64,000 nucleotides of DNA from an uncultured Gammaproteobacteria bacterium. Lineage in GTDB: Bacteria > Patescibacteriota > Microgenomatia > Daviesbacterales > UBA10151. A program made the translations under genes and the position numbers. The DNA lies in the NCBI GenBank assembly GCA_964551605.1, contig CAZKCV010000002.1, forward strand, positions 8,500 through 72,499, written 5' to 3'. Shown one piece after another: positions 1,681-53,413 of the stretch (the first letter of the stretch is position 1; every line of letters starts with the position of its first letter). The notes under the pieces are model-generated. The model was not told where the DNA came from. It saw only the letters and a list, made by a program, of their open reading frames with translations, and made no database searches.

Positions 1681-2538
1681 ATGACCCTTGCTGCCCGGGA
1701 TATTCAAAAGCTGGAAGAAAAAGCTAATTTAATCCGCCAGGATATAGTGAAGATGCTTTTAGAGGCAGGTTCCGGCCATTCTGCCGGTCCATTGGGGATG
1801 GCAGATGTTTTCACTGCGTTATATTTTCATATCTTAAATCATGATCCGGAGAAGCCGGATTGGAGTGAGCGCGACCGGTTGGTCTTATCCAACGGCCACA
1901 TTTGCCCGGTTTTATATGCCAGTTTAGCTCATGCCGGCTATTTCCCGGTTCCCGAGCTTATGAGTCTCCGAAAGCTAGACAGCAGATTACAGGGACATCC
2001 CCATAGGAGTGCTTTACCCGGTCTTGAAACTACTTCCGGTCCCTTAGGCTCAGGATTATCCCAGGCAGTGGGAATGGCTTTAGCCGGCAGAATTGATAAA
2101 GCCAAATGGCAGGTTTATTGTTTAATGTCAGACGGTGAACAGGATGCCGGCAACACCTGGGAAGCTGTGATGTTAGCCGGAAAAGAGAGGTTGCATAATT
2201 TAACAGGACTAATTGACCGCAATAATATCCAGATAGATGGTTTTACCGAAGACATCATGCCGCTTGAGAATTTAAGGGCCAAGTATGAAGCTTTTAATTG
2301 GCATGTATTGGAAATTGACGGCCACAACATGCAGGAAATTATTGACGCTTTTGCAGAGGCAAAGGCAATTTTTGAAAAGCCGACTTTAATTATTGCCCAT
2401 ACAATTCCGGGCAAAGGGGTGGATTTTATGGAGAATAAGTTTGAATGGCATGGTAAACCCCCAAGTAAAGAAGAGGCTAAACTAGCTTTGCAAGAGCTAA
2501 GGACTTTACAGGGAAAAATTAAATCGGAGCATCAATGA
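1681..2538 (+). CDS. transketolase, N-terminal (TPP-binding) subunit
   Basis: 285 aa, transketolase N-terminal section (GHSAGPLGMADV, SNGH, DGEQDAGNTWEA). Stop overlaps the next start (ATGA). Confidence 0.85.
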   Translation: MTLAARDIQKLEEKANLIRQDIVKMLLEAGSGHSAGPLGMADVFTALYFHILNHDPEKPDWSERDRLVLSNGHICPVLYASLAHAGYFPVPELMSLRKLDSRLQGHPHRSALPGLETTSGPLGSGLSQAVGMALAGRIDKAKWQVYCLMSDGEQDAGNTWEAVMLAGKERLHNLTGLIDRNNIQIDGFTEDIMPLENLRAKYEAFNWHVLEIDGHNMQEIIDAFAEAKAIFEKPTLIIAHTIPGKGVDFMENKFEWHGKPPSKEEAKLALQELRTLQGKIKSEHQ

Positions 2539-3524
2539 TTAATAAAAACGCCCATTTAAATCCGAAGCTTTTTGATCCTGATATTGAACAAGCGCCATCC
2601 CGTAATGGTTATGGTGAGGGATTAGTCATAGCAGGTGAAGAAAGTGCTCAAGTAGTGGCCTTGTGTGCGGATTTAACTGAATCTACCAGGACTCAGGAGT
2701 TTGCGGAGAAGTTTCCGGAAAGATTTATTGAGATCGGGGTGGCAGAACAGAATTTGGTAACAGTGGCTTCCGGTATGGCCGCAGCTGGCAAAATTCCTTT
2801 TATTTCATCATATGCTACTTTTTCTCCGGGCCGCAATTGGGAACAGATCCGGACTACGGTTTGTTACAATGACTTGCCGGTTAAGATTGTGGGTTCTCAC
2901 GCCGGCGTAACAGTCGGCCCGGATGGCGCCACCCATCAAGCCCTGGAAGACATGGCAATTATGCGGAGTTTACCGAATATGATAGTAATCTCTCCGGCAG
3001 ATTCAATTGAAGCCAGAAAAGCTACTTTGGCTATGGCCAGACTGGCTAAGCCTTGTTATATCCGACTGTCGCGGGATAAAGTTCCGGTGGTTACCACCAA
3101 CCAAACTCCTTTTGAGATAGGTAAGGCTGAGGTTTTCCATGAAGGTAAAGATGTAGTTATAATAGCTACCGGTCAGATGGTATATAGAGCTCTCCTCTGC
3201 GCCAAAGAATTATCTTCGCACAAAATTTCTGTTCGGGTAATAAATTGTTCCACTATTAAACCATTAGATAAAAACACTATTCTAGAAGCCGCGGAAGAAT
3301 GTGGTGCTATGGTAACAGTAGAGGAACATCAGATAACAGGGGGTTTGGGAAGCGCAGTAGCAGAAGTTTTATCCCAGAATTTTCCAATACCCTTAAAAAT
3401 AATTGGTGTGGAAGACCGGTTTGGCGAGTCCGGTGAGCCTAATGAGCTACTGCAAAAATTCGGCTTGACTAAGGAAGCTATAATTAAGGCTGTTACTCAT
3501 GTTTTGCGCATGAAAGGAAAATGA
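2535..3524 (+). CDS. transketolase, C-terminal (pyrimidine-binding) subunit
   Basis: 329 aa, transketolase C-terminal section (EQNLVTVASGMA, HAGVTVGPDGATHQ). Confidence 0.85.
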   Translation: MINKNAHLNPKLFDPDIEQAPSRNGYGEGLVIAGEESAQVVALCADLTESTRTQEFAEKFPERFIEIGVAEQNLVTVASGMAAAGKIPFISSYATFSPGRNWEQIRTTVCYNDLPVKIVGSHAGVTVGPDGATHQALEDMAIMRSLPNMIVISPADSIEARKATLAMARLAKPCYIRLSRDKVPVVTTNQTPFEIGKAEVFHEGKDVVIIATGQMVYRALLCAKELSSHKISVRVINCSTIKPLDKNTILEAAEECGAMVTVEEHQITGGLGSAVAEVLSQNFPIPLKIIGVEDRFGESGEPNELLQKFGLTKEAIIKAVTHVLRMKGK

Positions 3525-3952
3525 TTTCTTCAGACTTATCTAACAGGTTGATCTTTGTCTTAAGTTTGCTGGGGCTTGGTGTAGCCTCATTTTTATTTTA
3601 TGAATACAATATTGCCGGTACCATTGTTTGTCCCACCGGCCAGGGTTGTGATATTGTGCGGCTTAGTCCCTATTCCAGTTTTTTTGGCATCTCCATTCCT
3701 TTTTTAGGGATTATTTTCTACTTAACCATGGCAGTTTTGTCTGTGGTGCGTACCCATGGTATTTCATCAAAAATACATACTCTCCAGCTGTTGATTGCGG
3801 CCTCCGGAGTCGGCTTCGGAATTTATCTGACTTACCTGGAAATTTATGTGATCAAGGCGATTTGCTTTTGGTGCGTATTATCGTTTATAATATCCATTGC
3901 GCTTTTACTATCGGTTATTATAGTCCGTAAGTATAATGAAAACAGAAACTAA
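3521..3952 (+). CDS. vitamin K epoxide reductase (VKOR) family membrane protein
   Basis: 143 aa polytopic protein with loop Cys pair (CPTGQGC) and TM CxxC (CFWC), the VKOR hallmark. Directly followed by a DsbA-like gene. Confidence 0.7.
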   Translation: MISSDLSNRLIFVLSLLGLGVASFLFYEYNIAGTIVCPTGQGCDIVRLSPYSSFFGISIPFLGIIFYLTMAVLSVVRTHGISSKIHTLQLLIAASGVGFGIYLTYLEIYVIKAICFWCVLSFIISIALLLSVIIVRKYNENRN

Positions 3953-4586: not shown

Positions 4587-5222
4587 ACTAAACTTTTTGG
4601 CAGGCCAGAAGATAATTAATAACCTAACCGGTATCGCAATAGCAGAAAGCACAAAAGTAATCCGTCCCAAAAACCGCTTGATTACCAAAACTCCTTCTAC
4701 CTGTTCCATTAGATAAAAATGTCCGACAGCTAACCCTAGCGCCAGGTAACTGGTAATTTGGACAGTTTTCCAAGTCTTTGGGCTTAAAAGTTTTAGAGCC
4801 TTTTTGCTGGAGGTTAAAGTTACGAGGAAAAGAATAGTAATTGCGGCCAGTCCTGCCAGGATGCCGGGATATTTAGGATGGGAGTAGTCAACAAACCTTA
4901 ACAGATTAAATTTGTAAAAATAAATAAAGACTAAAGTCACATGAGCTAAAGCTGCTAAAAAGCTGGTAATACCCCAAAATTTACGGTGGGCTTTTAGAAG
5001 ATTCAAACCGGGAAACAATTTGCATATGGGGCCGACTAAGAGGGTAATCGCCAGAAGGCTGATGCTTAAAAGCCCGCTTGTTTTGACCATCTCCGGGGGG
5101 GTGATTTTGCCGAAATTATAAAAAAGAAAAAAAGCCAGGAAAAGCATAATAGGTACCCCTATGTCAAAAAGGCGACGGGTAGAGTTTTTTTCTACATGAT
5201 AATGATAGGGATGGTTTTTCAT
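4536..5222 (-). CDS. ferric-reductase-like transmembrane (MsrQ/YedZ-like) heme-binding membrane protein, tentative
   Basis: 228 aa, ~6 TM. Conserved His in TM helices (KAHRKFWG...ALAH; AVGHFY), typical of bis-heme ferric reductase-like TM domains. Confidence 0.4.
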   Translation of the reverse strand: MKNHPYHYHVEKNSTRRLFDIGVPIMLFLAFFLFYNFGKITPPEMVKTSGLLSISLLAITLLVGPICKLFPGLNLLKAHRKFWGITSFLAALAHVTLVFIYFYKFNLLRFVDYSHPKYPGILAGLAAITILFLVTLTSSKKALKLLSPKTWKTVQITSYLALGLAVGHFYLMEQVEGVLVIKRFLGRITFVLSAIAIPVRLLIIFWPAKKFSLLKSVRNRGVQILKSL

Positions 5223-5275
5223 TGACAGAGAAGTGTCTATATAGATAGTATGATAATAGAAAGAGTTTTGTCAAA

Positions 5276-6082
5276 ATGGATGATCCTGCCCCAAAAGATA
5301 ACTTACTAAATCTTTCCGGAAAAGTAGCCATTGTCACAGGTGGAGCTTTGGGGATTGGTTTTGGAATCGCTTATAGATTGGCTGAAGCCGGGGCAAAGGT
5401 AATGATTGCTGACTTTAAGGAGCAGGAAGCGGCAGCAGCAGTCCAGAAATTAACGGAAAAAGGTTGGACGGCAAAAGCGGTCAAGGTAGATATTTCCAAT
5501 GAGGCGGATGTTTCTAGAATGGTCTTAGAAACAGTTAGTGTTTTTGGAGGATTGGATATTTTAGTCAATAATGCCGGAATTTATCCTTCTATTCCGGTAC
5601 TGCAGATGAGCGTGGGGGATTTTGACCGGGTGATTAATGTAAATTTAAGAGGGGTTTTTCTTTGCACCAAATATGCCTCTGGACAGATGATTAAAGCCGG
5701 AAAAGGGGGCAAGATTATCAATGTTACGTCAATTGATGCGCTTCATCCTTCATCCATCGGACTTGCTCATTATGATGCTTCAAAACACGGAGTGTGGGGT
5801 TTTACCAAAAATGTAGCCTTAGAGCTCGCTGTGCATAAAATATGGGTTAATGCCATAGCTCCGGGAGGTATTGCCACGGAAGGGGTTAAGGCCATGCAGG
5901 CACAAGCGCCTACCGGGGTAGATATGTCTAAAGTGCTGGAAAGTTTTTTGGCTAAAATCCCCATGCACCGGATGGGGGAGCCGGATGATATTGGTAAAGT
6001 AGCCCTCTTTTTAGCTTCAGACATGTCTTCTTACATGACCGGCTGCCAGATTGTAGTGGACGGCGGGGTATTACTGAGTTAG
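5276..6082 (+). CDS. SDR family oxidoreductase (FabG-like)
   Basis: GKVAIVTGGALGIG cofactor motif, NNAG, catalytic Y-x3-K (YDASKHG). Confidence 0.8.
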   Translation: MDDPAPKDNLLNLSGKVAIVTGGALGIGFGIAYRLAEAGAKVMIADFKEQEAAAAVQKLTEKGWTAKAVKVDISNEADVSRMVLETVSVFGGLDILVNNAGIYPSIPVLQMSVGDFDRVINVNLRGVFLCTKYASGQMIKAGKGGKIINVTSIDALHPSSIGLAHYDASKHGVWGFTKNVALELAVHKIWVNAIAPGGIATEGVKAMQAQAPTGVDMSKVLESFLAKIPMHRMGEPDDIGKVALFLASDMSSYMTGCQIVVDGGVLLS

Positions 6083-6220
6083 CCGGAGGTGAGACAAATT
6101 ATAAGTTTGGACAAGAAACATGAGCATCAGACGGTATAAGATTTATATATATGAGTCATGATTCTAAAAAAGTTGCTTTTTCATGTACATAGTGGTACTA
6201 TGGGTTAATTAGTTTAGCTT

Positions 6221-7810
6221 TTGAGCAGAAGGCTAATTATGCAGACCATTGAAATGGATGGGGTAAAAGTTGAGAATCCATCAAACTTAAATCCGTCCGA
6301 CGGGCAACCGCCTGATTCCTCCGTGGCGTCACAACATCATCGACGGTCCCACCCTTGGGCTAATAAACTGATACGGTGGGGTTTAGGGTTTTTAACAGTG
6401 GCCGCCCCTGCAGCTGATACCGGTATTAATATTTCCCAGGCCACAGCCCAGGAATTTTCCAAACAACAACCAGTCCATACCTTAGTACAGGAAACTCCTT
6501 CACACGGCACAGTGGCTGAAGATGTAGAAAAAGTTAAATCCTTAATCAGTGCTACTGAATCACTAAGTAATACCATGGCTTTAATTAATATGACAGAGGA
6601 GGAGTTAAAAAATAACCCCCTGGATGTCCGGGGCAAGGGATATCTTAAAGATGCGGATGGCAATGTTACAGTACAATTCCGCCTGAATGGGGACAGGTCC
6701 ATAGACAGGTCCAGAGTAGATCCGTCTACTTCCCAGCTTGAAGCCTACCTGCCTTATGCCCAAAACACCCCTGTGGAATATCCCCAGGCCTTTGCACTCC
6801 ATCCCGAAGGCAGAATAGCAATTCAAGGTGGGAGCGAACAGCCTGGTGGTCTAGAAACCAGACTAGCAATAAATCTTAATTTTGACAGAAATGGCAATAC
6901 TTTTGAAGGAGTGCCCTGGACATTTGGGGCAGGAACCGGGGTGGTCACTGATATTATTTTCGTCCCCCAGATTAATAAGTGGCTGGTGACGGTCAACAGT
7001 ATTGAGAAAAACACCAGTATCTATATTATGACTGTGGGAAATTCAATAATTGATACCAATATTATTCCAACTAATCTTAAAGATAGAGTTGCGGGAGGAT
7101 TAACCACGGCTGCGTATGATGCCTCCAGCAATAAACTAACAGCTTATTCGGCTGGTTCGGCAGATATAATAGGCGGCTTGCTGGAATATGAAATTAATCC
7201 CCAGACAGGAGAGGCCAGCGTCAGGCAGCTGTTTCCGGATGCAGGCTTCCTGGATGGATTACTGGTGGAAAATGACAGCAGCGGGAATACCAAAACAGTC
7301 TATGCCAATAGTCCCAATCAGAGAGCATTTTATATTTTTGATGTAGTTAATGGGACTAGTAGAGCGGTCAATACCTCATTTAGGCAAGAGTTAGCAAGTA
7401 TTGATGGATTTTTAGATGCAAGATTTTACGCCACCAGAAAACTTAATGATACATTCATCTCCGCCGGTTATTATTTTAGGTCAACAGGGGTAGCAGGAGC
7501 GATTGTAATAACCTGGCGGGAGGGAGCGGGGCAAAACGCGGCTCCGGTCTTTCTCAGCAAACAAGTGGTAGCCTCAAGAGATGGAGAGGATAATCCCCTG
7601 ACTATTGTATATAACGGCCTGGAATTACTTAAGTTCGGTAATTCACCTGTGGCTTTGGCAAAGATTAACCCTTTAGGTGAAATGGCAGCTGCCATTGGCC
7701 CGGATGGTAAATTCAGCCCGGAGCGGTATTTTCCCAATAAAAAGGCTGAGCAAAGATTAACCCGGGTCTATCTACCTGCAGTTCACAAAAATTTTGGCGG
7801 ACACTGGTAA
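6221..7810 (+). CDS. hypothetical secreted protein (529 aa)
   Basis: Long ORF with no recognisable catalytic motif. Hydrophobic segment near N-terminus (LIRWGLGFLTVAAPAAD). Alternative start at ATG 6239 (MQTIEMDG). Confidence 0.5.
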   Translation: MSRRLIMQTIEMDGVKVENPSNLNPSDGQPPDSSVASQHHRRSHPWANKLIRWGLGFLTVAAPAADTGINISQATAQEFSKQQPVHTLVQETPSHGTVAEDVEKVKSLISATESLSNTMALINMTEEELKNNPLDVRGKGYLKDADGNVTVQFRLNGDRSIDRSRVDPSTSQLEAYLPYAQNTPVEYPQAFALHPEGRIAIQGGSEQPGGLETRLAINLNFDRNGNTFEGVPWTFGAGTGVVTDIIFVPQINKWLVTVNSIEKNTSIYIMTVGNSIIDTNIIPTNLKDRVAGGLTTAAYDASSNKLTAYSAGSADIIGGLLEYEINPQTGEASVRQLFPDAGFLDGLLVENDSSGNTKTVYANSPNQRAFYIFDVVNGTSRAVNTSFRQELASIDGFLDARFYATRKLNDTFISAGYYFRSTGVAGAIVITWREGAGQNAAPVFLSKQVVASRDGEDNPLTIVYNGLELLKFGNSPVALAKINPLGEMAAAIGPDGKFSPERYFPNKKAEQRLTRVYLPAVHKNFGGHW

Positions 7811-7825
7811 AACAAAAATAAATTT

Positions 7826-9853
7826 CTAAGGTAAAGTGGGATTAGCATTTTCCGGGATTGATCTTTCGTTGCCGTTGCTGTTCATAAGATAACCATAAGT
7901 TCCCCAGGTACGAGTTCCAAGGCCACTATAAAGTTCGACATTGAAAACAGGTTTAATACGTTGTGTAAGTTTGGTAATTGGTTCTGCATATAACACTCCG
8001 GGAATAGTAACCGGAAGCGGCTGCCACTGGGTTGAGTTACGGTAGTAAACATAATAATTCCCTTGATTAAGGGTTTGGCCGTTTATTGTCCTGGTTTTAT
8101 TGACGGATAAAAGCATAAAACCATTGTTGTTCCTGACATGATCCATCAGTTGTTGCAAATTGGCACCAGTGCCGGGGGAGCCGGCGCTTTGGGTGAATGC
8201 CACTCCTACCAGTGCAACATTATCAGGTGTAGCATTCTCTAAAGACTGGGCTATTTGTAGGGAGTTGTAGTATCCGCTGCCAGCTTGTGCTGCACTTAGG
8301 CCGCTGATGCCATAAGTCCCCCTTGTGTTATCGGCGCTAGTGCCTCTGGTAATTTGTAAACTTTTTAGTTGGGGAGCGGTAGTGGTACAGGTAACAGATC
8401 TGGGAGAACCGGGCAGGAGAGTATGGGTGCCGGAGCCGATATTAATGCCGTAGGCATAGATATTGTGGGATCTGCCGTCCCTAAGGGCATTAGCCGGAAT
8501 GGCATAAGAGAAACCATGGTTGGGATTGCCGCCGCATTGTGCTCCCACAGCTGCCTCTCTAACAACATTAGCCTGGGTGCTGGTTAAAGGGATACCTGCC
8601 CCGGCCGGACCGTCCGCATAGAAATCTACCCTTAGGGAAGCATTGTAATTATCCCCGTCACAGGTCCAGCCGGTGATGGCCGCGCAAGTCCCGCCTTCCA
8701 GATTCCCCACCGGATTATAGGTGGCTTCCCCGTAAATCTGCAGGTTGGCCATATCTCCGGTTGCTGCATTGTAGCCGGAGGTGGGAGGATAACCCGGGGG
8801 AGAATAATAAAAAGTATTAAAGTAGGCCCGGCCAGAAGTATAGGCATTCCGGGTATTGATGCCGTTGATAAAGACATTGCCCTTGCCGCAGAAAGGATTA
8901 TCCAGCCTGACCTGGGAGCCGGAGGTATTGGTGCCGAAAAGGTCAATCTGGCGGGGTTCATTGGGCCGGTCGCAGTTATACCTGCCCTGTTCCCAGTAGC
9001 CGCCTTCTTCAGTATCTCGGCCCTGATCCAGGTGGGATTGCTGGATGGAGAGGAAATACTGCTGGCCGGGAGTAACCGAATTGCCGGGCAGGTTAACTTC
9101 CAGATAATTCCCGCTATTATCCGTTCCCTGCCAAGAGACAGTTTGGGAAGTCCAATTGGGTCCGGTATATTTTGTGGGTAGGCTGTTGGGCGGGGGGCTA
9201 CTCCAGTCAAAGGTAGACTCGCCAAAGATTACACCGCTGCCATATGGTACGCCCCACTGTGACCATTCATCCCGGAGACTCTGGTCAGTAAGCATTTGGT
9301 AAGCCCGGGTCCATTCAAGGGCCCGGGGGCAGGGCCGCTGGGGATCATTAATGATCATTCTTCTTAAGAATAAAGCTTCAATGGAGTTCTGGTCCACTCC
9401 GCAAAGGCTGGCCAAATCATTGGCTAACTCACCACCGATAAAAATCCGTTCCTCCCTGGCTAACATCGGCCCGGTAGGAGAAATAACCGTGGTCCGGCCT
9501 TCATAGCCAAACGGGCTGGATTGTCCTTCGGGAGAAGTAGCCACTTGAGTAGAAGCAGTTGGTTCTCCGGCAAATACAGCCACAGAAACTATCCCACCGG
9601 TGTTGCCTCCGGCATGGCCCAGTTTAAAGTCGGTTAACCTGATCCGGTTGACTTTGACCACTCCCGAAGGGGCGGCAAAGCTTTGGCCGGCCAGGTGGTT
9701 ATCGGTCCAGCCTGCCTCAGTAGTATTGCTGCCGGCCGGACCATTGCCCGGGAAAATTTCAATTTCAGCGGCTGAGGCCGGGGAGGGAAGAATAAGTAAT
9801 ATAAGTAATAAGAATAAACATGTAATGCTGAATAAAGCTTGAAGTTTTTTCAT
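7826..9853 (-). CDS. hypothetical large secreted/surface protein (Gly/Asn/Thr-rich)
   Basis: ORF 7826..9898. Start placed at 9853 (MKKLQALFSITCLFLLLILLILPSPASAAE), a classic signal peptide. No recognisable enzyme motifs. Confidence 0.5.
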   Translation of the reverse strand: MKKLQALFSITCLFLLLILLILPSPASAAEIEIFPGNGPAGSNTTEAGWTDNHLAGQSFAAPSGVVKVNRIRLTDFKLGHAGGNTGGIVSVAVFAGEPTASTQVATSPEGQSSPFGYEGRTTVISPTGPMLAREERIFIGGELANDLASLCGVDQNSIEALFLRRMIINDPQRPCPRALEWTRAYQMLTDQSLRDEWSQWGVPYGSGVIFGESTFDWSSPPPNSLPTKYTGPNWTSQTVSWQGTDNSGNYLEVNLPGNSVTPGQQYFLSIQQSHLDQGRDTEEGGYWEQGRYNCDRPNEPRQIDLFGTNTSGSQVRLDNPFCGKGNVFINGINTRNAYTSGRAYFNTFYYSPPGYPPTSGYNAATGDMANLQIYGEATYNPVGNLEGGTCAAITGWTCDGDNYNASLRVDFYADGPAGAGIPLTSTQANVVREAAVGAQCGGNPNHGFSYAIPANALRDGRSHNIYAYGINIGSGTHTLLPGSPRSVTCTTTAPQLKSLQITRGTSADNTRGTYGISGLSAAQAGSGYYNSLQIAQSLENATPDNVALVGVAFTQSAGSPGTGANLQQLMDHVRNNNGFMLLSVNKTRTINGQTLNQGNYYVYYRNSTQWQPLPVTIPGVLYAEPITKLTQRIKPVFNVELYSGLGTRTWGTYGYLMNSNGNERSIPENANPTLP

Positions 9854-26654: not shown

Positions 26655-29600
26655 ATGAAGAAAAGAGCAGATACTACCTCACAAATTATCTCCTTGCCCC
26701 GAACCAGAGGCCGCAGAAAAACTAACGGAGAACACCGTACTAATGGTTTAGATGCAAACGGCCGCAGCTTTGAAACCAGGTTCATGTCCCGTTATAAAAA
26801 AATCCCCTCCCTGCCTGCAGGTTTGCCCGTACCCACTTTTTCCGAAAGCTCCAATAAAATCCTGCAGGAGCGCTACCTTTTAAAAGGCGGCAACTTAGAG
26901 ATAGTAGAAACCATATCCGAGCGGTTTTGGCATATTGCCTATGATATTGCTTCCGGAGACTTTGATTTTAATGTAGCGGAAAAGCAGGTTTCTGATCTGG
27001 CCAAGAAGTTTTATTCCATGATGGTCCATCAGGAATTTTTGCCTAATTCCCCGACCATTATGAATGCCGGAAAACAAAACGGCCTGCAATATTCTGCCTG
27101 TTTTGTATTGCCGGTTGGTGATTCCTTGCCGGAGATTTTTGATTCCATCAAATATGCGGCTTTAATTCACCAGACAGGTGGCGGAACCGGGTTTGCTTTC
27201 TCACGTCTTAGGCCGGCCGGCTCGATTGTCAATACTACCGGCGGAGTAGCTTCCGGACCGGTTTCATTTTTACGGGTTTTCAATGCGGCGACAGAATCCA
27301 TTAAGCAGGGCGGTACCAGAAGGGGAGCCAACATGGGTATTTTGCGGGTGGATCATCCGGATATCCTGGAATTTATCCGTTGTAAGGCCGAACTGGATGA
27401 TCTCAATAAGCCGATTTATGAAGGCATTGCCCCGCTTTTGCCTGACGACTCTGCACGGGAGTATGCAAAAACACTGCTTTTGGACAGACAAATTGCCAAT
27501 TTTAATGTTTCCGTGGCTGCCACCGATAAATTCATGCAGGCAGTTGACAAGGGCGGGGATTATGAATTGATAACTCCTCATAATGGCGAGGTGGTGGGAA
27601 AGCTCAACGCCCGGGAAGTCTTTGATGAGATAATTGAAAGGGCCTGGAAAACCGGTGACCCGGGACTCATTTTCATTGACCGGATTAATGATTCCCCTGC
27701 TAATCCGGTACCCTCCATGGAAACAATTGAAGCTACAAATCCGTGTGTAACCGGGGATGCTTGGGTTCATACTAATGTAGGACCGAGACAAGTATCTGAT
27801 TTAACCGGTAGGCCATTTTTAGCCAGAATTAATGGCCGTGATCATCTCTCCGGCTTGGAAGGATTTTTTAAGACCGGTACAAAAAAAGTCATTAATCTAC
27901 AGACAATTGAAGGGTATGGTCTGCGTTTAACTCCAGATCATTTAATAAGAAAAATTACTTGTGTTGGATCTGATCAGGTTGAATGGACTAAGGCGGGAGA
28001 ATTAAAGATTGGAGATTATATTGAGATAAATAACCATAGGGCAAATAGTCAATGGTCCGGAAAATATACATATAAAGAAGGATATCTCATTGGTTTGTTG
28101 GTGGGTGACGGGACATTGAAAGCAGATAAAGCTGTTTTGTCTGTGTGGGACACTTCTAAATTATCAACAGCAGTACAGCCTAGCGGTGCACAAAGCATGA
28201 TGCAATTTGCTCTTCAGAGTACTGATTCAGTACCCCATCGAAGTGATTTCTCTGGTTGGATGTTTTTGCCTGATAGGAATGAGTATCGGATGGCGCTTGG
28301 GTATGTAAAACATTTAGCTCATGAGTTAGGGATGTATCCGGGCAGAAAAACTATTACAAAAGAAATTGAGAAAGCCTCGAGCGATTTTTATAAAGGTTTT
28401 TTGAGAGGATTATTTGATACTGACGGTTCTGTACAAGGTTATGAAGGCGGACGTGTCAGTATCAGGTTAGCTCAATCTGATTTGCCACTGCTTCAGGCAG
28501 TTCAGAGAATGCTACTGCGTTTAGGGATTTTTTCCCATATTTTTCAGAATAGACGCAAAGCAGGCAAAAAATTGCTGCCCGATGGAAAAGGCGGTTATAA
28601 GGAATATCCGGTTAAAGCACAACATGAACTCTCAATCACCATGGATAACATAGAAGTTTTTAATGAATTAATTGGTTTTGCCAATAGTGAAAAGTCAACA
28701 AAATCAGCACAGAAAATAGCATCTCATAGTACTAGAGGTTTTTACAAACAAAAATTTGCAGCAAGGATAAAAAGTATCGAATTTGAATCTAAAGAGGATG
28801 TTTACGATGTTAGTATACCTAAAGTAAATTATTTTGATGCTAATGGAATAATAGCCCATAATTGTGGCGAGCAACCGCTGGCACCCTGGGATGCCTGTAA
28901 TTTAGGCTCCATTAATTTAGGGAAATTTGTCTATGCTGATGGTTCCGGTGTGGATTTTGAAAAGCTAAAACAGGCCACCCATTTGGCAGTTCATTTTCTG
29001 GACAATGTAGTGCAGACAAATCCTTTCACCCTAAAGCAAATTTATGATGAAGTGCGCCAAAACCGGAGAATCGGTTTAGGGGTAATGGGTTTTGCCGATA
29101 TGCTGTTTAAGCTAAAAACCCCCTATAATTCTGATGAGGCTCTTGAGCTGGCTGAAAAAATAATGCAGTTTATTAATGACGAGGGCCATAAAAAATCAGA
29201 AGAGTTGGCTAAAGAGCGGGGTGCCTTCCCGAACTGGGTACATTCTATCTACGCTGACAGGGAAGCTTCGGCTTTCAAGAACAGGCCGGCTGCCTATGCT
29301 TACCAGGGAGGAAGAAAAATCAGAAATTCTACCGTGACTACTATTGCTCCTACGGGTACGATTTCCATTATCGGAGACTGTTCATCCGGCATTGAGCCGG
29401 TCTTTGCTTTGGCCTATATTCACAAAGCTAAAGCCAAAGGAGATCAGTATCGAATTCTGACGATTGCCAACCAAACTTTTACGGATATTGCCAAAAGGGA
29501 AGGTTTTTATAGTGATGACCTGGCTGCAAAGGTGCTGGAACACGGGTCAGTCATCGGTGTAACTGAGATGCCGGAGCAGTGGCAAAAGGTGTTTGTAACG

Positions 29601-30392
29601 GCCCAGGAGATTGACCCGGTCTGGCATGTTAAGATGCAGGCTGCATTTCAGCGGTTTACGGATAATGGCGTGTCTAAAACTATCAACCTACCGAATTCCG
29701 CTACCAAAGATGATGTGGCCCTGGCTTACCAGATGGCCTATGACACCGGCTGTAATGGGATCACCATTTACCGGGATGGTTCCAAGTCTACGCAGGTGTT
29801 AAATGTTTCATCCAGTCTTAATAAATCTGTTGAAGATCCGGCAGCTCCGGTGGCTGAGCGGCCCATGATCCTAAGGGGCCGGACTTATAAAATTTCTACT
29901 CCGGTGGGAGAAGCTTTTATTACCGTTAACCGGGATATAGCTGACCAGCCGTTTGAGGTCTTTGTCACAGTGGGCCGGGCCGGCATGCATACTATGGCAG
30001 ATGCGGAAGCCATGGGTAGGTTGGTTTCATTATCTTTGAGATTGGCCAGGGGAGCCAAAGAAACAGATCCCAAGGCCGTAGCCTTAAAGATTGTCGGGCA
30101 GCTTCGGGGGATCGGGGGAGCCTTAAGTGTAGGGTTTGGCAAAAACCGGGTGCAGAGTTTGGCAGATGCTATTGCCAAAGTCCTGGCAGAAGATTTGGCT
30201 CTGACTCCGGAAGAACGCCAGGTAGAAGCTATTCCATTGGATTTAGCCGTAAACGGAGATCCGGCACCGCTGTCAACCAATAGTGAATTCCCGGCTACCA
30301 ATGCTGATTTGTGTCCTGAGTGCGGTTCAGCCTCCTTTGTGATGGAAGAAGGCTGTAAGAAATGTCATTCGTGTGGCTATAGTATGTGCTGA
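26655..30392 (+). CDS. nrdJ: adenosylcobalamin-dependent (class II) ribonucleotide reductase, intein-containing
   Basis: Class II RNR blocks (active-site NPC|GEQPLAPWDACNLGSINL). C-terminal Cys-rich tail (CPECGS...CKKCHSCGYSMC). 373-aa in-frame insertion at the catalytic Cys. Alternative start ATG 26784. Confidence 0.85.
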   Translation: MKKRADTTSQIISLPRTRGRRKTNGEHRTNGLDANGRSFETRFMSRYKKIPSLPAGLPVPTFSESSNKILQERYLLKGGNLEIVETISERFWHIAYDIASGDFDFNVAEKQVSDLAKKFYSMMVHQEFLPNSPTIMNAGKQNGLQYSACFVLPVGDSLPEIFDSIKYAALIHQTGGGTGFAFSRLRPAGSIVNTTGGVASGPVSFLRVFNAATESIKQGGTRRGANMGILRVDHPDILEFIRCKAELDDLNKPIYEGIAPLLPDDSAREYAKTLLLDRQIANFNVSVAATDKFMQAVDKGGDYELITPHNGEVVGKLNAREVFDEIIERAWKTGDPGLIFIDRINDSPANPVPSMETIEATNPCVTGDAWVHTNVGPRQVSDLTGRPFLARINGRDHLSGLEGFFKTGTKKVINLQTIEGYGLRLTPDHLIRKITCVGSDQVEWTKAGELKIGDYIEINNHRANSQWSGKYTYKEGYLIGLLVGDGTLKADKAVLSVWDTSKLSTAVQPSGAQSMMQFALQSTDSVPHRSDFSGWMFLPDRNEYRMALGYVKHLAHELGMYPGRKTITKEIEKASSDFYKGFLRGLFDTDGSVQGYEGGRVSIRLAQSDLPLLQAVQRMLLRLGIFSHIFQNRRKAGKKLLPDGKGGYKEYPVKAQHELSITMDNIEVFNELIGFANSEKSTKSAQKIASHSTRGFYKQKFAARIKSIEFESKEDVYDVSIPKVNYFDANGIIAHNCGEQPLAPWDACNLGSINLGKFVYADGSGVDFEKLKQATHLAVHFLDNVVQTNPFTLKQIYDEVRQNRRIGLGVMGFADMLFKLKTPYNSDEALELAEKIMQFINDEGHKKSEELAKERGAFPNWVHSIYADREASAFKNRPAAYAYQGGRKIRNSTVTTIAPTGTISIIGDCSSGIEPVFALAYIHKAKAKGDQYRILTIANQTFTDIAKREGFYSDDLAAKVLEHGSVIGVTEMPEQWQKVFVTAQEIDPVWHVKMQAAFQRFTDNGVSKTINLPNSATKDDVALAYQMAYDTGCNGITIYRDGSKSTQVLNVSSSLNKSVEDPAAPVAERPMILRGRTYKISTPVGEAFITVNRDIADQPFEVFVTVGRAGMHTMADAEAMGRLVSLSLRLARGAKETDPKAVALKIVGQLRGIGGALSVGFGKNRVQSLADAIAKVLAEDLALTPEERQVEAIPLDLAVNGDPAPLSTNSEFPATNADLCPECGSASFVMEEGCKKCHSCGYSMC
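27744..28862 (+). mobile_element. intein with LAGLIDADG homing-endonuclease domain inserted at NP|C-GEQ of nrdJ
   Basis: Begins with Cys (CVTGDAWVHT), ends with HN followed by Cys (IIAHN|CGEQ). Two LAGLIDADG-type motifs (YLIGLLVGDGT, FLRGLFDTDGS). Removing it restores the canonical NPCGEQ motif. Confidence 0.8.
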
Positions 30393-30540
30393 CATTTCTT
30401 GCGAAATCTTCGCTTGTTATTGTAATCGTTGTTACAATAACGGCTACGATGTTCTTAAGAACTTGCTCACAAGTTCGCAAGACCTTGCGACAGCAGGCTG
30501 TCTTAAAAAGTGTCATTCGTGTGGCTATTCAATGTGTTAA
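30393..30540 (+). repeat. palindrome-dense ~100-nt element followed by a recoded duplicate of the last ~14 nrdJ codons
   Basis: 30496-30540 encodes GC-L-KKCHSCGYSMC*, matching nrdJ 30351-30392 (GCKKCHSCGYSMC*) with only synonymous changes plus one extra codon. Between the copies lie nested inverted repeats (cttgcgaa/ttcgcaag; ttattgtaa/ttacaataa; gttcttaagaac). Confidence 0.6.
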
Positions 30541-30813: not shown

Positions 30814-31566
30814 CCGAGGTGTCAATACACTTCCACCCCCGAGGTGGAAGCACGAATTAATCTTCGCTATCCAATAGTTGGTGTTTAATTACCTCCAACT
30901 TTTGTGCATAGTCAATTTGGTCATCAACGAACTTTTTGTAATCCATTACAGATTGAAAGAAATTGAGAATTTCTTTCTTTGTGCACATCCCTTTGCCATT
31001 AAGGTATTCATTATAAGACGACCATTCGTAATCTTCTGGCTTCTTAACTAGAAATGACGAGACAGGGTTTAAATGGATATACCGAGAGACATGGATTAAT
31101 TGTTCATCCGATTCTATTAGAACCGCTTTAAATTGTCCTTGCAATAGAGGTCCGACTCTGTCGAACTTAACATTATAGTATTTAGTATAACTATTGGTCA
31201 GTTTGCCGATGAATTCACTTACACCATTTTCTTTTAATTGTTTAATGAGAAAATGGAAATGATTAGGCATTAGGCAATAACAGATAATTTCAACAATCTT
31301 TTTATCAGGATCTGGCTCAAATAATTTGTATTTGATAAAGTTAGAAAACTTTGGTTTAGGTCCTTCTAATTGATAATAACCGATTGCCTGTAAAAACCTT
31401 GTGTAGGTTCTTCTATTTTCAAAAATCCGTCTTTTTTCCACTCCACGGTTGTATACGTGATAAAACTGACCATTAATTAGCGGAGTAATTCTATTTGGCA
31501 TATGAGATCAGAATAACTAAAAATTACCGAGGTGTCAATACACTTCCACCCCCGAGGTGGAAGCAC
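30814..31566 (-). mobile_element. RAYT/IS200-like element: Y1 HUH transposase gene bracketed by identical 40-bp hairpin-containing direct repeats
   Basis: Repeats at 30814-30853 and 31527-31566 (ccgaggtgtcaatacacttccacccccgaggtggaagcac), each with an internal hairpin cttccacc/ggtggaag. They flank ORF 30857..31501. Confidence 0.65.
30857..31501 (-). CDS. REP-associated tyrosine transposase (RAYT) / IS200-family Y1 HUH transposase
   Basis: Signature LMPNHFHFLI (HUH motif) and catalytic Tyr in YIHLNPV (the NPV variant typical of RAYTs). 214 aa. Confidence 0.7.
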   Translation of the reverse strand: MPNRITPLINGQFYHVYNRGVEKRRIFENRRTYTRFLQAIGYYQLEGPKPKFSNFIKYKLFEPDPDKKIVEIICYCLMPNHFHFLIKQLKENGVSEFIGKLTNSYTKYYNVKFDRVGPLLQGQFKAVLIESDEQLIHVSRYIHLNPVSSFLVKKPEDYEWSSYNEYLNGKGMCTKKEILNFFQSVMDYKKFVDDQIDYAQKLEVIKHQLLDSED

Positions 31567-31597
31567 AAATTGAAGAGTTCTTTGTTAGAATAAGCTC

Positions 31598-32131
31598 ATG
31601 AATCAGGAAAAGGGATTGGTGATTTTATATACCGGGGAGGGGAAGGGAAAAACGACGGCCGCTTTAGGATTGGTCCTGCGGGCAGTAGGATACAAAAGGA
31701 AATGCCTGATAATCCAGTTTGGCAAAATGTGGTTTACAGGAGAAGTTGCCGGAGTTAAAAAGCTTTCTCCTTTAGTCAAATTCATCCAAGGCGGCAAAGG
31801 ATTTGTTAAGATTTTAGGTGATAAACTGCCTCTAAAAGAGCACAAAAAAGCAGCATTGGATACGTTTAATTTATTAGAAAAAGAAGTGAAATCCGGCAAA
31901 TGGGATGTGGTGGTAGGAGATGAGATTGTGGGGGCTGTTTCCTCAGGACTATTATCTCTTACAAAGGTATTACGTCTTATTCATAATAAACCTACGGAGT
32001 TAGATTTAGTATTAACAGGCCATCATGCCTCTAAAAAATTAATGGAGATGGCAGATATAGTGACTGAGATGCGGGAGGTTAAACACCCTTATAAACAAGG
32101 CATTTTGGCAAAAAGGGGTCTTGACTTTTAG
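31598..32131 (+). CDS. cobO: ATP:cob(I)alamin adenosyltransferase (CobA/CobO/BtuR family)
   Basis: KGLVILYTGEGKGKTTAALG P-loop and conserved C-terminal DLVLTGHHA...VTEM...KHPY region typical of CobO/BtuR. Confidence 0.75.
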   Translation: MNQEKGLVILYTGEGKGKTTAALGLVLRAVGYKRKCLIIQFGKMWFTGEVAGVKKLSPLVKFIQGGKGFVKILGDKLPLKEHKKAALDTFNLLEKEVKSGKWDVVVGDEIVGAVSSGLLSLTKVLRLIHNKPTELDLVLTGHHASKKLMEMADIVTEMREVKHPYKQGILAKRGLDF

Positions 32132-40252: not shown

Positions 40253-40295
40253 AATTTAAGCGTAACAAAAGTGGAATTTTGAATCAACAAGCTAG

Positions 40296-40369
40296 TAGCG
40301 CGTACGGGAGTTGAACCCGTGATTTTCGGAATGAGAATCCGACGTCCTAGGCCACTAGACGAACGCGCC
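40296..40369 (-). tRNA. tRNA-Glu (anticodon CUC)
   Basis: Reverse complement folds as a cloverleaf: acceptor GGCGCGU/ACGCGCU, anticodon stem UCGGA/UCCGA with loop UUCUCAU (U33, A37), T-arm ACGGG-TTCAACT-CCCGT, discriminator A. CCA not encoded. Confidence 0.7.
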
Positions 40370-48722: not shown

Positions 48723-49880
48723 TTATATTCCCTGCTGGGATCTTTGGCGGAGGGTTTCTATGGTAGATGAATTGTTTGCTGGTGGTGTTTCCGTACCTCC
48801 TTCAACAGCTCCAAAGTTAGCTGATTCTGAGTCAGTAGGTTCTTCTGCAGGTTGGGGAACCGGCGTGGCAACAGGAGCAGGAGCTACTGCTTTTTTCTCC
48901 GGAACAGCTACAGCCGGTAAGCTGGTTGTTTTAGCCGGTTGGCCGATACCCAGGATAAAATAAGCAGAGGCTCCGATCACCAAAAGCAATAAGACTCCAC
49001 CCAAGCCAATCAGCCACTTAGGCACACCTTTATGCGCTTCGGCTGGCAGGTTAGGCACTACCGGATTCGGAACAGGTGTAGGTGCGGTAGTTGGTGCTTC
49101 CGGTGACGGCGGTGCTGCTTCCACTTGGGCAGTATTAGTAATTAAATGTGAAAGGTCTGTCGGAGCGGCATCTTGCGGAGATGGGGGTTGGGAATCGCTC
49201 GGAGTTTCGACGGGAGCGGTAACGGTATTTGTCCAACTGGGTTGAGTGGCGGGTTGTGATTCTCCGGCCGGGGCCTGGACAGGCACACTCCAGGGATTAT
49301 CTAGGGGGGAGGTTGACGGTGCCTGAGGTGTATCGCCTAGAGAGGATAAAGTGGGAGGCGTAAAGGTGGGGGTAGGCGGTGCCGGTGTTGCCGGAGCCGG
49401 TTCCGGTTGTATCGAAGGGACAGGACCTGACGCGGGTGGTGTGGAGGGTATTGTTGCCTGAGATAGGGAAGGCCAGGCTTCAGCAGAGGTGGATTCTGCC
49501 GGGGCCGGGGTCGACTCTGGCGCAGGCGGAGTTTGCGTTGATGGCGCTGGTGGCGCCCAGGGGGAGCTTAAATCAGCTGCCGGAGCGGGAGTATTGTTTA
49601 ACCCCAGATCAGCAGGAGCGGTGGGGGTAGGCGGATTAAATGCAGAAGCGGTGTCTGCTGGTAAAGGACTTGGATCTGGAGGTAGATTGGGAGCCGGGGA
49701 GGGTGTCAGGTCTGCCGCCTGAGAAGGCCAAGCCGCGGTTGCACCGTTACCGGCAGGTGCTGTGGGGCTGAAGCCGGAATCAGCCGGCACGGTAGGCTGA
49801 GGTGGCCAGCTGTCAGTTGGTGGCGTGGCTGAAGGGGAGCCTTGATTATTAAGCGGGTTTTGATTATTAGAATTATCCAT
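48723..49880 (-). CDS. proline/threonine/alanine-rich protein with single TM helix near C-terminus, hypothetical
   Basis: 385 aa, extreme low-complexity (P/T/A/S), TM WLIGLGGVLLLLVIGASAYFILG. GC-rich third positions unlike neighbours. Confidence 0.45.
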   Translation of the reverse strand: MDNSNNQNPLNNQGSPSATPPTDSWPPQPTVPADSGFSPTAPAGNGATAAWPSQAADLTPSPAPNLPPDPSPLPADTASAFNPPTPTAPADLGLNNTPAPAADLSSPWAPPAPSTQTPPAPESTPAPAESTSAEAWPSLSQATIPSTPPASGPVPSIQPEPAPATPAPPTPTFTPPTLSSLGDTPQAPSTSPLDNPWSVPVQAPAGESQPATQPSWTNTVTAPVETPSDSQPPSPQDAAPTDLSHLITNTAQVEAAPPSPEAPTTAPTPVPNPVVPNLPAEAHKGVPKWLIGLGGVLLLLVIGASAYFILGIGQPAKTTSLPAVAVPEKKAVAPAPVATPVPQPAEEPTDSESANFGAVEGGTETPPANNSSTIETLRQRSQQGI

Positions 49881-53236: not shown

Positions 53237-53413
53237 CCCCGCTTAAAAGCGAGGCCAGTTATCCAGGTAGTTCCAAATTGCTTTGAAACTCGGCGGCTCA
53301 CCGTCCTTTGTCCCTGGTAACTTGTTGTAGATGTATACTATCATAGACGCTCCCTAAATGCAAATTTAAGCATAAAAATGATAAAATAACCTCTGAAGGC
53401 TATTAAAATAATT

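Follow-up and report, generated by a model that had tools for sequence, protein, structure and literature searches.

The window analysed here, a stretch of 64,000 nucleotides (contig CAZKCV010000002.1 of assembly GCA_964551605.1, positions 8,500 to 72,499), is deposited under an uncultured Gammaproteobacteria bacterium and placed by the GTDB lineage in the Daviesbacterales of the Patescibacteriota. It contains nrdJ, the gene of a class II ribonucleotide reductase (RNR), whose reading frame is interrupted by what we consider, with a probability of roughly 0.93, to be an intein of the standard class 1 type with a LAGLIDADG homing endonuclease nested in it, seated between the proline and the thiyl-radical cysteine of the NPCGEQ finger loop. 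The locus is composed as follows:

Positions 26655–30392, plus strand: nrdJ precursor gene (class II, adenosylcobalamin-dependent RNR) from the listing of open reading frames (ORFs); 1245 amino acids including the intein, with the stop codon contained in the end coordinate.
Positions 26655–27743, plus strand: N-extein, 363 amino acids, last residues ...IEATNP (Pro = −1); aligns with Thermotoga maritima NrdJ through ...STNP.
Positions 27744–28862, plus strand: predicted intein, 373 amino acids; a LAGLIDADG homing endonuclease with two motifs is nested in a class 1 HINT splicing domain (Pfam, NCBIfam, AlphaFold2, Foldseek).
Positions 27744–27767, plus strand: block A (CVTGDAWV) with Cys1, the predicted nucleophile for the N–S acyl shift; at least 90% of 32 aligned homologs share Cys1, and TIGR01445 covers residues 1–68.
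Positions 27918–27947, plus strand: block B (GLRLTPDHLI) with the T-x-x-H motif Thr63/His66, both invariant in homolog alignment A1.
Positions 28080–28115, plus strand: first LAGLIDADG motif GYLIGLLVGDGT with acidic Asp122, intein residues 113–124, assigned from sequence and the I-DmoI match of the modelled endonuclease.
Positions 28395–28430, plus strand: second LAGLIDADG motif GFLRGLFDTDGS with acidic Asp227, intein residues 218–229; Phe224, Asp225 and Asp227 are invariant in A1.
Positions 28794–28862, plus strand: blocks F and G (EDVYDVSIPKVNYF and DANGIIAHN) with the Asp of block F and the last two residues, His372 and Asn373; TIGR01443 covers residues 352–373.
Positions 28863–28865, plus strand: Cys+1, putative C-extein nucleophile of splicing and thiyl-radical cysteine of the mature enzyme, from the alignment with T. 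maritima NrdJ.
Positions 28863–30392, plus strand: C-extein, 509 amino acids plus stop, comprising the remaining barrel, the TSCPD domain and a Cys-rich C-terminal tail (profiles, alignment).

The insert occupies codons 364–736 of the ORF, that is, 373 codons without a stop, of which the first (Cys1) lies at 27744–27746: It begins with CVTGDAWV, ends with NGIIAHN and is flanked by ...IEATNP on one side and CGEQPLAPWDAC... on the other. A preliminary description of the window, made from its letters alone, had proposed an in-frame intein of precisely this extent that starts with Cys, ends with His-Asn followed by Cys, contains two LAGLIDADG-like motifs and splits NPCGEQ at the thiyl-radical cysteine. 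Its coordinates and wording proved exact, both motifs are present, and the profile searches and the comparison with intein-free orthologs that it had suggested both bear out the assignment, as detailed below; the insert aligns with no RNR domain in relatives.

The host protein, searched as a whole, reaches the NCBIfam equivalog NF006417 (NrdJ; 984.7 bits, cut-off 961), scores 694 bits against TIGR02504 (NrdJ_Z; cut-off 400) and contains the Pfam domains Ribonuc_red_lgN, Ribonuc_red_lgC and TSCPD. The equivalog-level match and the NPCGE thiyl-radical loop mark it, by sequence, as a class II, adenosylcobalamin-dependent RNR. Splicing in silico yields a protein of 872 amino acids, whose alignment to T. 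maritima NrdJ (1xje; E 1e-121) runs across the junction uninterrupted by gaps: Removal of the intein restores NPCGEQ, which pairs with STNPCGEIGL of the T. maritima enzyme. In this alignment Cys+1 corresponds to chain residue Cys322 and the next cysteine to Cys333. Because Cys+1 aligns with Cys322, which we take to be the radical site of T. maritima NrdJ, we place the intein directly at the radical cysteine.

Within the insert, all sequence blocks of a splicing domain are recognizable. In addition to the conserved positions listed above, Val353, Phe364, Asn367 and Gly368 of the block F/G region are invariant among the A1 homologs, at least 90% of which also retain His372 and Asn373. Searched alone, the insert scores above the curated cut-offs of the relevant profiles, namely Pfam LAGLIDADG_3 (residues 214–311; 90.6 bits, E 8e-26, cut-off 22.5), Pfam Intein_splicing (45.6 bits, E 8e-12, cut-off 35.8), TIGR01445 intein_Nterm (25.5 bits, cut-off 24.5) and TIGR01443 intein_Cterm (21.0 bits, cut-off 15.6). 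Agreement of this kind lies far outside what chance would produce. A single-sequence search against the PDB sequences gave only marginal matches, to the Pho RadA intein (E 3e-3), the F and G blocks of which align with the C-terminal region of the window intein.

An AlphaFold2 model, built from 32 homologs, reached high confidence (predicted local distance difference test, pLDDT, 93.7; predicted template modelling score, pTM, 0.92). Compared with known structures by Foldseek, the whole model matched TliVMA (7qsu, E 1e-17), PI-PfuI (1dq3) and PI-SceI (1vde), with E-values ranging from 1e-17 to 1e-12; its endonuclease part matched I-DmoI and I-Tsp061I (E 3e-7 to 2e-6; target-normalised template modelling (TM) score 0.55–0.65), and its splicing domain matched Mxe GyrA. 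Judged by sequence and predicted fold, the element thus has every feature expected of a class 1 intein, and its central part every feature of a two-motif LAGLIDADG endonuclease, with two acidic-ended motifs in a pseudo-dimeric αββαββα arrangement. Class 1 inteins start with Cys, Ser or Thr, terminate in Asn (or Gln or Asp) that mostly follows a His, and have Cys, Ser or Thr as the residue that opens the C-extein; the window intein shows Cys1, His-Asn and Cys+1 at these positions. We also considered a class 3 intein: Members of this class lack an N-terminal nucleophile and are defined by a Trp(B:12)-Cys(F:4)-Thr(G:5) motif (PMC4031507, PMC7664689). The window intein has Cys1, an Asp in block F (VYD) and Ala at G:5, and we rejected this assignment.

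On the textbook class 1 pathway, the 1245-residue precursor, with its active-site loop interrupted, would have no catalytic activity. Splicing would be initiated by an N–S acyl shift of Cys1 at the Pro–Cys1 bond, after which the thiol of Cys+1 would receive the N-extein. Cyclisation of Asn373, assisted by His372, would release the intein, and an S–N shift would form the Pro–Cys peptide bond of the 872-residue NrdJ. One cysteine would then serve in two roles, first as the splicing nucleophile and later as the catalytic radical site. The freed endonuclease, in turn, would cut intein-free nrdJ at the conserved DNA that encodes TNPCGEQ, and repair of the cut allele from the intein-bearing copy would spread the element.

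A scan of species-representative genomes yielded 63 loci, the closest of which belong to metagenome-assembled genomes (MAGs) of Candidatus Daviesbacteria and other Patescibacteria, and the nrdJ of each locus was aligned pairwise to the spliced window sequence. The assignment of the host to Candidatus Daviesbacteria rests on these loci, as a look-up of the 1245-residue precursor by exact sequence returned no record. The NPCGE motif is uninterrupted in about 30 close orthologs from Daviesbacteria and related members of the same candidate phylum (74–86.5% extein identity), two of which have inteins at other sites. Beyond the scan, a protein collection contained 254 homologs of the intein (E ≤ 1e-5; best identity 53%) from Proteobacteria, Nitrospirae, Chloroflexi, Firmicutes, Actinobacteria and DPANN archaea; among the matches listed, all homologs that span a junction show TNP↓C[VI]T... 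or ...HN↓CGEQ (the arrow marks the junction), i.e., the same RNR site. These distributions bear on the idea that the intein is a conditional switch, in which a redox or other signal gates splicing and hence RNR activation and dNTP supply, for example by a Cys1–Cys+1 disulfide or by a slow reaction at the junction that follows Pro(−1). The idea draws on the cysteines at both 1 and +1 and the proline at −1, on passages of two papers that document disulfide control and conditional splicing in other inteins (PMC4031507, PMC5874633), and on the report that an R2 intein improves cofactor loading (PMC8772380). However, the NP↓C...HN↓C arrangement is common to hundreds of homologs across phyla, no sequence feature points specifically to regulation, and the intein is dispensable, since the closest orthologs do without it. 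We consider a switch improbable.

An intein of the window type was found in only two of the loci compared, L005 (83% intein identity) and L001 (71%), both from Daviesbacteria and closer than anything that the search of the protein collection returned. The exteins of these two genes are 82.8% and 69.6% identical to those of the window. Intein and extein identities are thus about equal, as under vertical co-inheritance, and would suit an element near the end of its homing cycle, which still splices but has an endonuclease that has ceased to home, and which is handed down vertically as an immobile passenger. Yet a neighbour-joining tree of the exteins does not group the three intein-bearing genes together. 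Each adjoins an intein-free sister instead, with the window gene pairing with intein-free L009 and L005 with intein-free L015, and this non-monophyly speaks against a mere passenger. The patchy distribution is, as far as sequences can tell, consistent with a mobile intein. Moreover, intein-free alleles differ little in the TNPCGEQ-encoding DNA that spans the insertion point (in L009 it reads ...GAAAGTACAAATCCA↓TGCGGAGAGCAACCACTAGCC...), and therefore a plausible homing target exists.

Patterns of selection and composition bear on the same question. By Nei–Gojobori estimates, which are only rough because every comparison comes close to saturation of the synonymous divergence dS, ω (the ratio of non-synonymous to synonymous divergence) is about 0.09–0.11 for the intein in the comparisons with L005 and L001 and, against L005, 0.04–0.05 for the exteins. 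Such strong constraint on the exteins is hard to reconcile with the insert being a decayed, non-splicing remnant in a pseudogene; the reading as a true RNR domain peculiar to this lineage is contradicted by the HINT and LAGLIDADG fold of the insert and by the closest orthologs, which lack it. In addition, all 1245 codons are open although the third positions of the insert are AT-rich, and the splicing residues are all intact. On these grounds we discarded both the pseudogene and the RNR domain, for which next to no likelihood is left. Within the intein, the endonuclease is the most constrained part against L005 (90% amino acid identity, ω 0.05, compared to 0.14–0.15 for the splicing parts), which would be difficult to explain for an immobile passenger without function, and both catalytic Asp residues are retained. 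The GC content at third codon positions (GC3) is 0.27 in the window intein versus 0.48 in both exteins; across nine loci with inteins of either lineage (the window, L001–L006, L042 and L060; the second lineage is described below) it is 0.21–0.31 in the inteins, while host exteins range from 0.23 to 0.51. This uniformly low GC3 fits inteins that stem from a common mobile pool and are still unameliorated to their hosts; the lack of any drift toward the host value again disfavours the passenger, which we regard as unlikely, though more credible than a switch. The key residues are likewise conserved throughout, from Cys1 and the Thr63/His66 pair of block B to the Asp of each LAGLIDADG motif, that of block F, His372 and Asn373. 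Taken together, these results favour an intein that is probably active in both respects, splicing and still homing.

Several points weigh against this view besides the near-saturation of dS already mentioned. The lower proportion of synonymous differences (pS) in the intein may partly result from its AT-rich third positions, and repeated loss, rather than transfer, could yield the patchy distribution as well. The chemistry of the N-terminal junction is a further concern: Pro(−1) is reported to be unfavourable for the first acyl shift in at least one RNR intein, Mth RIR1. Finally, block F is devoid of the often-conserved His F:13 (KVNYF in the window, GVNAF in the homolog consensus), a residue that is dispensable in some inteins (PMC4031507).

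In comparison with known systems, the window intein is real but ordinary: an element of a known kind at a classic RNR site. The position directly N-terminal to the thiyl cysteine is documented as the commonest one for contiguous inteins in class I and class II RNRs, and RNR ranks second among the bacterial intein hosts with 211 inteins (PMC4760082). The preliminary description had called RNR catalytic sites a classic homing target, a statement that held up. The annotated intein in the class Ib gene bnrdE of Bacillus phage SPbeta (SPBc2) is the closest phage relative (26% identity over the full length, E about 1e-20) and sits at the homologous point, KFSNL↓CVTGETLL...GIVTGN↓CSEVL compared to ATNP↓CVTGDAWV...GIIAHN↓CGEQP in the window. 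Both inteins share Cys1, Cys+1 and the two-motif LAGLIDADG architecture, whereas the penultimate residue is Gly in SPbeta and His in the window. Because the site is the most common one known for contiguous RNR inteins and the SPbeta NrdE intein occupies it too, we see nothing out of the ordinary in the element itself. Positions 940–1573 of NF006207, the NCBIfam model of an archaeal intein-containing NrdJ, align with the window intein and C-extein. The architecture, in which the two HINT halves flank a pseudo-dimeric LAGLIDADG endonuclease, is that of the structural comparators TliVMA and PhoVMA (7qsu, 7qst), PI-PfuI from the RNR of Pyrococcus furiosus, and PI-SceI. TM scores against TliVMA, PI-PfuI and PI-SceI are about 0.55–0.63, at sequence identities of only 12–16%. 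With 373 amino acids, the window intein is shorter than most of these chains (PI-PfuI, PI-SceI and full-length TliVMA have about 420–454 residues). The metagenomic split inteins NrdJ-1 and NrdJ-2 (Dassa et al. 2009) reside in the same host enzyme and active-site loop; however, they are split, are accompanied by a free-standing endonuclease gene and are integrated one residue more C-terminally (PMC2677866), whereas the window intein is contiguous with its LAGLIDADG part in frame.

What is mildly new is the host lineage only: In contrast to RIR1-type inteins, the host is the class II NrdJ of a bacterium of the candidate phyla radiation (CPR), and the RNR-intein phylum list of a 2015–16 survey contains no CPR phyla (PMC4760082), so that documented RNR inteins are extended to Candidatus Daviesbacteria. 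For annotation, the intein has to be marked lest nrdJ be miscalled as fused, frameshifted or over-long.

The same NP↓CGE codon is used by a second intein lineage in six Daviesbacteria loci. These inteins comprise 369 amino acids, are 22–24% identical to that of the window and end in ...EGIVSRG↓CGEQ, with Ser-Arg-Gly in place of the Ala-His-Asn of the window intein. They were located as follows:

Locus L002, positions 1734–2840: Gly-terminated intein.
Locus L003, positions 2460–3566: Gly-terminated intein.
Locus L004, positions 7084–8190: Gly-terminated intein.
Locus L006, positions 5107–6213: Gly-terminated intein.
Locus L042, positions 7042–8148: Gly-terminated intein.
Locus L060, positions 5598–6704: Gly-terminated intein.
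Proteins P0123–P0146 and P0152–P0286: further members of this second intein lineage.

These Gly-terminated ("B-type") inteins have much in common with the window intein, namely host gene, insertion point, Cys1 and Cys+1, the T-x-x-H motif of block B and the Asp in block F, and their long forms likewise contain two LAGLIDADG motifs; the window intein, however, is canonical and lies outside the B-type clade. In the six loci, the codons of the terminal Arg (CGT/CGC) and Gly (GGA/GGG) vary synonymously, and ω is 0.06–0.15 for the exteins and 0.03–0.09 for the inteins, which argues that the genes are alive and that Arg-Gly is under selection. The clade includes mini forms of about 125–158 amino acids as well as forms with an endonuclease. 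The mini forms are undetected by Pfam; in a profile built from them, the C-terminus ITEGYVSRG aligns with ITNGFVSHN of Mxe GyrA and the N-terminal half with the mycobacterial DnaB inteins 6rix and 6bs8 (E 2e-7). An exhaustive profile search retrieved 275 cluster representatives at E ≤ 1e-10. Inspection of the best 150 revealed at least 70 Gly-ended inserts at NP↓CGE (53 RG, 13 QG, 2 KG, 1 LG and 1 VG) and seven Asp-ended ones, with the junction pattern of the Gly-terminated inserts being [S/Q/N][R/Q/K]G↓CGE. All ten representatives of the clade that were looked up come from metagenomes or MAGs. A model of P0143, a partial NrdJ with a B-type mini insert of 132 amino acids, matched RNR structures only in Foldseek and was thus uninformative for the insert.

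Judging from their terminal residues, the Gly-terminated inteins cannot use canonical Asn cyclisation. Reviews give Asn, Gln, Asp and Glu as the only terminal intein residues, and a literature search, the coverage of which excluded most subscription journals, found no description of inteins without a cyclisable C-terminal residue. The elements may be removed by attack of Cys1 on the Gly–Cys+1 amide after transesterification, which would yield a cyclic intein; alternatively, an N–S shift at Gly↓Cys+1 might be followed by ligation, or cleavage might occur without ligation. Whether by one of these routes or otherwise, it is conceivable, albeit doubtful, that these elements are removed or made harmless without the Asn-type cyclisation common to the three recognised intein classes and represent a further mechanistic class of protein splicing. 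If they do splice, they would challenge the indispensability of a cyclisable C-terminal residue; we rate the Gly-terminated clade as a by-product more valuable than the window intein. The window intein may be actively homing among CPR bacteria and competing with the Gly-terminated lineage for one target; with about 30 intein-free alleles, three with the window-type intein and six with the unrelated one, the NPCGE site offers a natural single-site system for the study of homing, loss and competition.

Relatives of the window gene contain inteins at three further nrdJ sites: GGG↓C...HN↓TGF (extein position 177), KQGG↓C...[HS]N↓[ST]RRGA (220) and SISK↓C...HN↓TIN (635). Genes with inteins at these additional sites occur in L006, L028, L029, L034, L036, L039–L041, L050, L051, L056 and L059. 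Four inteins are present in the Chloroflexia nrdJ of L059, an open frame of 2684 amino acids, and the nrdJ of L006 combines the site-177 intein with a Gly-terminated one.

Downstream of nrdJ, two genes were assigned:

Positions 30857–31501, minus strand: Y1 (IS200-type) transposase, RAYT-like, 214 amino acids (PF01797, 33.9 bits).
Positions 31598–32131, plus strand: ATP:corrinoid adenosyltransferase, CobA/CobO/BtuR (PF02572, E 2e-53).

In the window, as in 37 related loci, nrdJ has the adenosyltransferase gene a short way downstream, and the product of this gene is likely the functional partner of the adenosylcobalamin-dependent RNR. The preliminary description had viewed the intein together with a RAYT element and a 3' duplication as making nrdJ a hotspot of selfish elements. 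The RAYT-like gene and a 33-nucleotide duplication do exist, but the former is long resident rather than a recent arrival: By tblastn it is found between nrdJ and cobO in about 20 related loci (51–86% amino acid identity) and is absent from L009, L061, L012 and L013. As these syntenic copies diverge along with their hosts, we consider the gene an old resident with presence/absence variation and not a fresh insertion. It is flanked by 45-nucleotide direct repeats (30814–30858 and 31527–31571; 98% identical), each with a CTTCCACC/GGTGGAAG hairpin.

The duplication concerns the last 33 nucleotides of nrdJ (30356–30388), which recur 148 nucleotides downstream at 30504–30536 with 85% identity, the second copy also ending in a stop. 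The approximately 115 nucleotides between the copies hold a GTTATTGTAA/TTACAATAAC hairpin. In L009 and L016 the 33-nucleotide sequence is single copy, and the intervening sequence is also present in L032. In one MAG (L004/L063) the assembly is broken at just this place, which is compatible with a repeat at the 3' end of nrdJ.

Elsewhere in the window, the ORF at 48723–49880 (minus strand) has a GC content of 57%, compared to 41.6% for the window, and matches no Rfam family. We considered an rRNA gene with intron-encoded endonucleases at this position and dropped it, Rfam and ARAGORN having detected only two structured RNAs in the window: tRNA-Glu(CTC) at 40295–40369 (minus strand) and a DUF3800-II RNA motif at 53253–53328 (minus strand; Rfam RF02961, 60 bits, gathering score 43.2).

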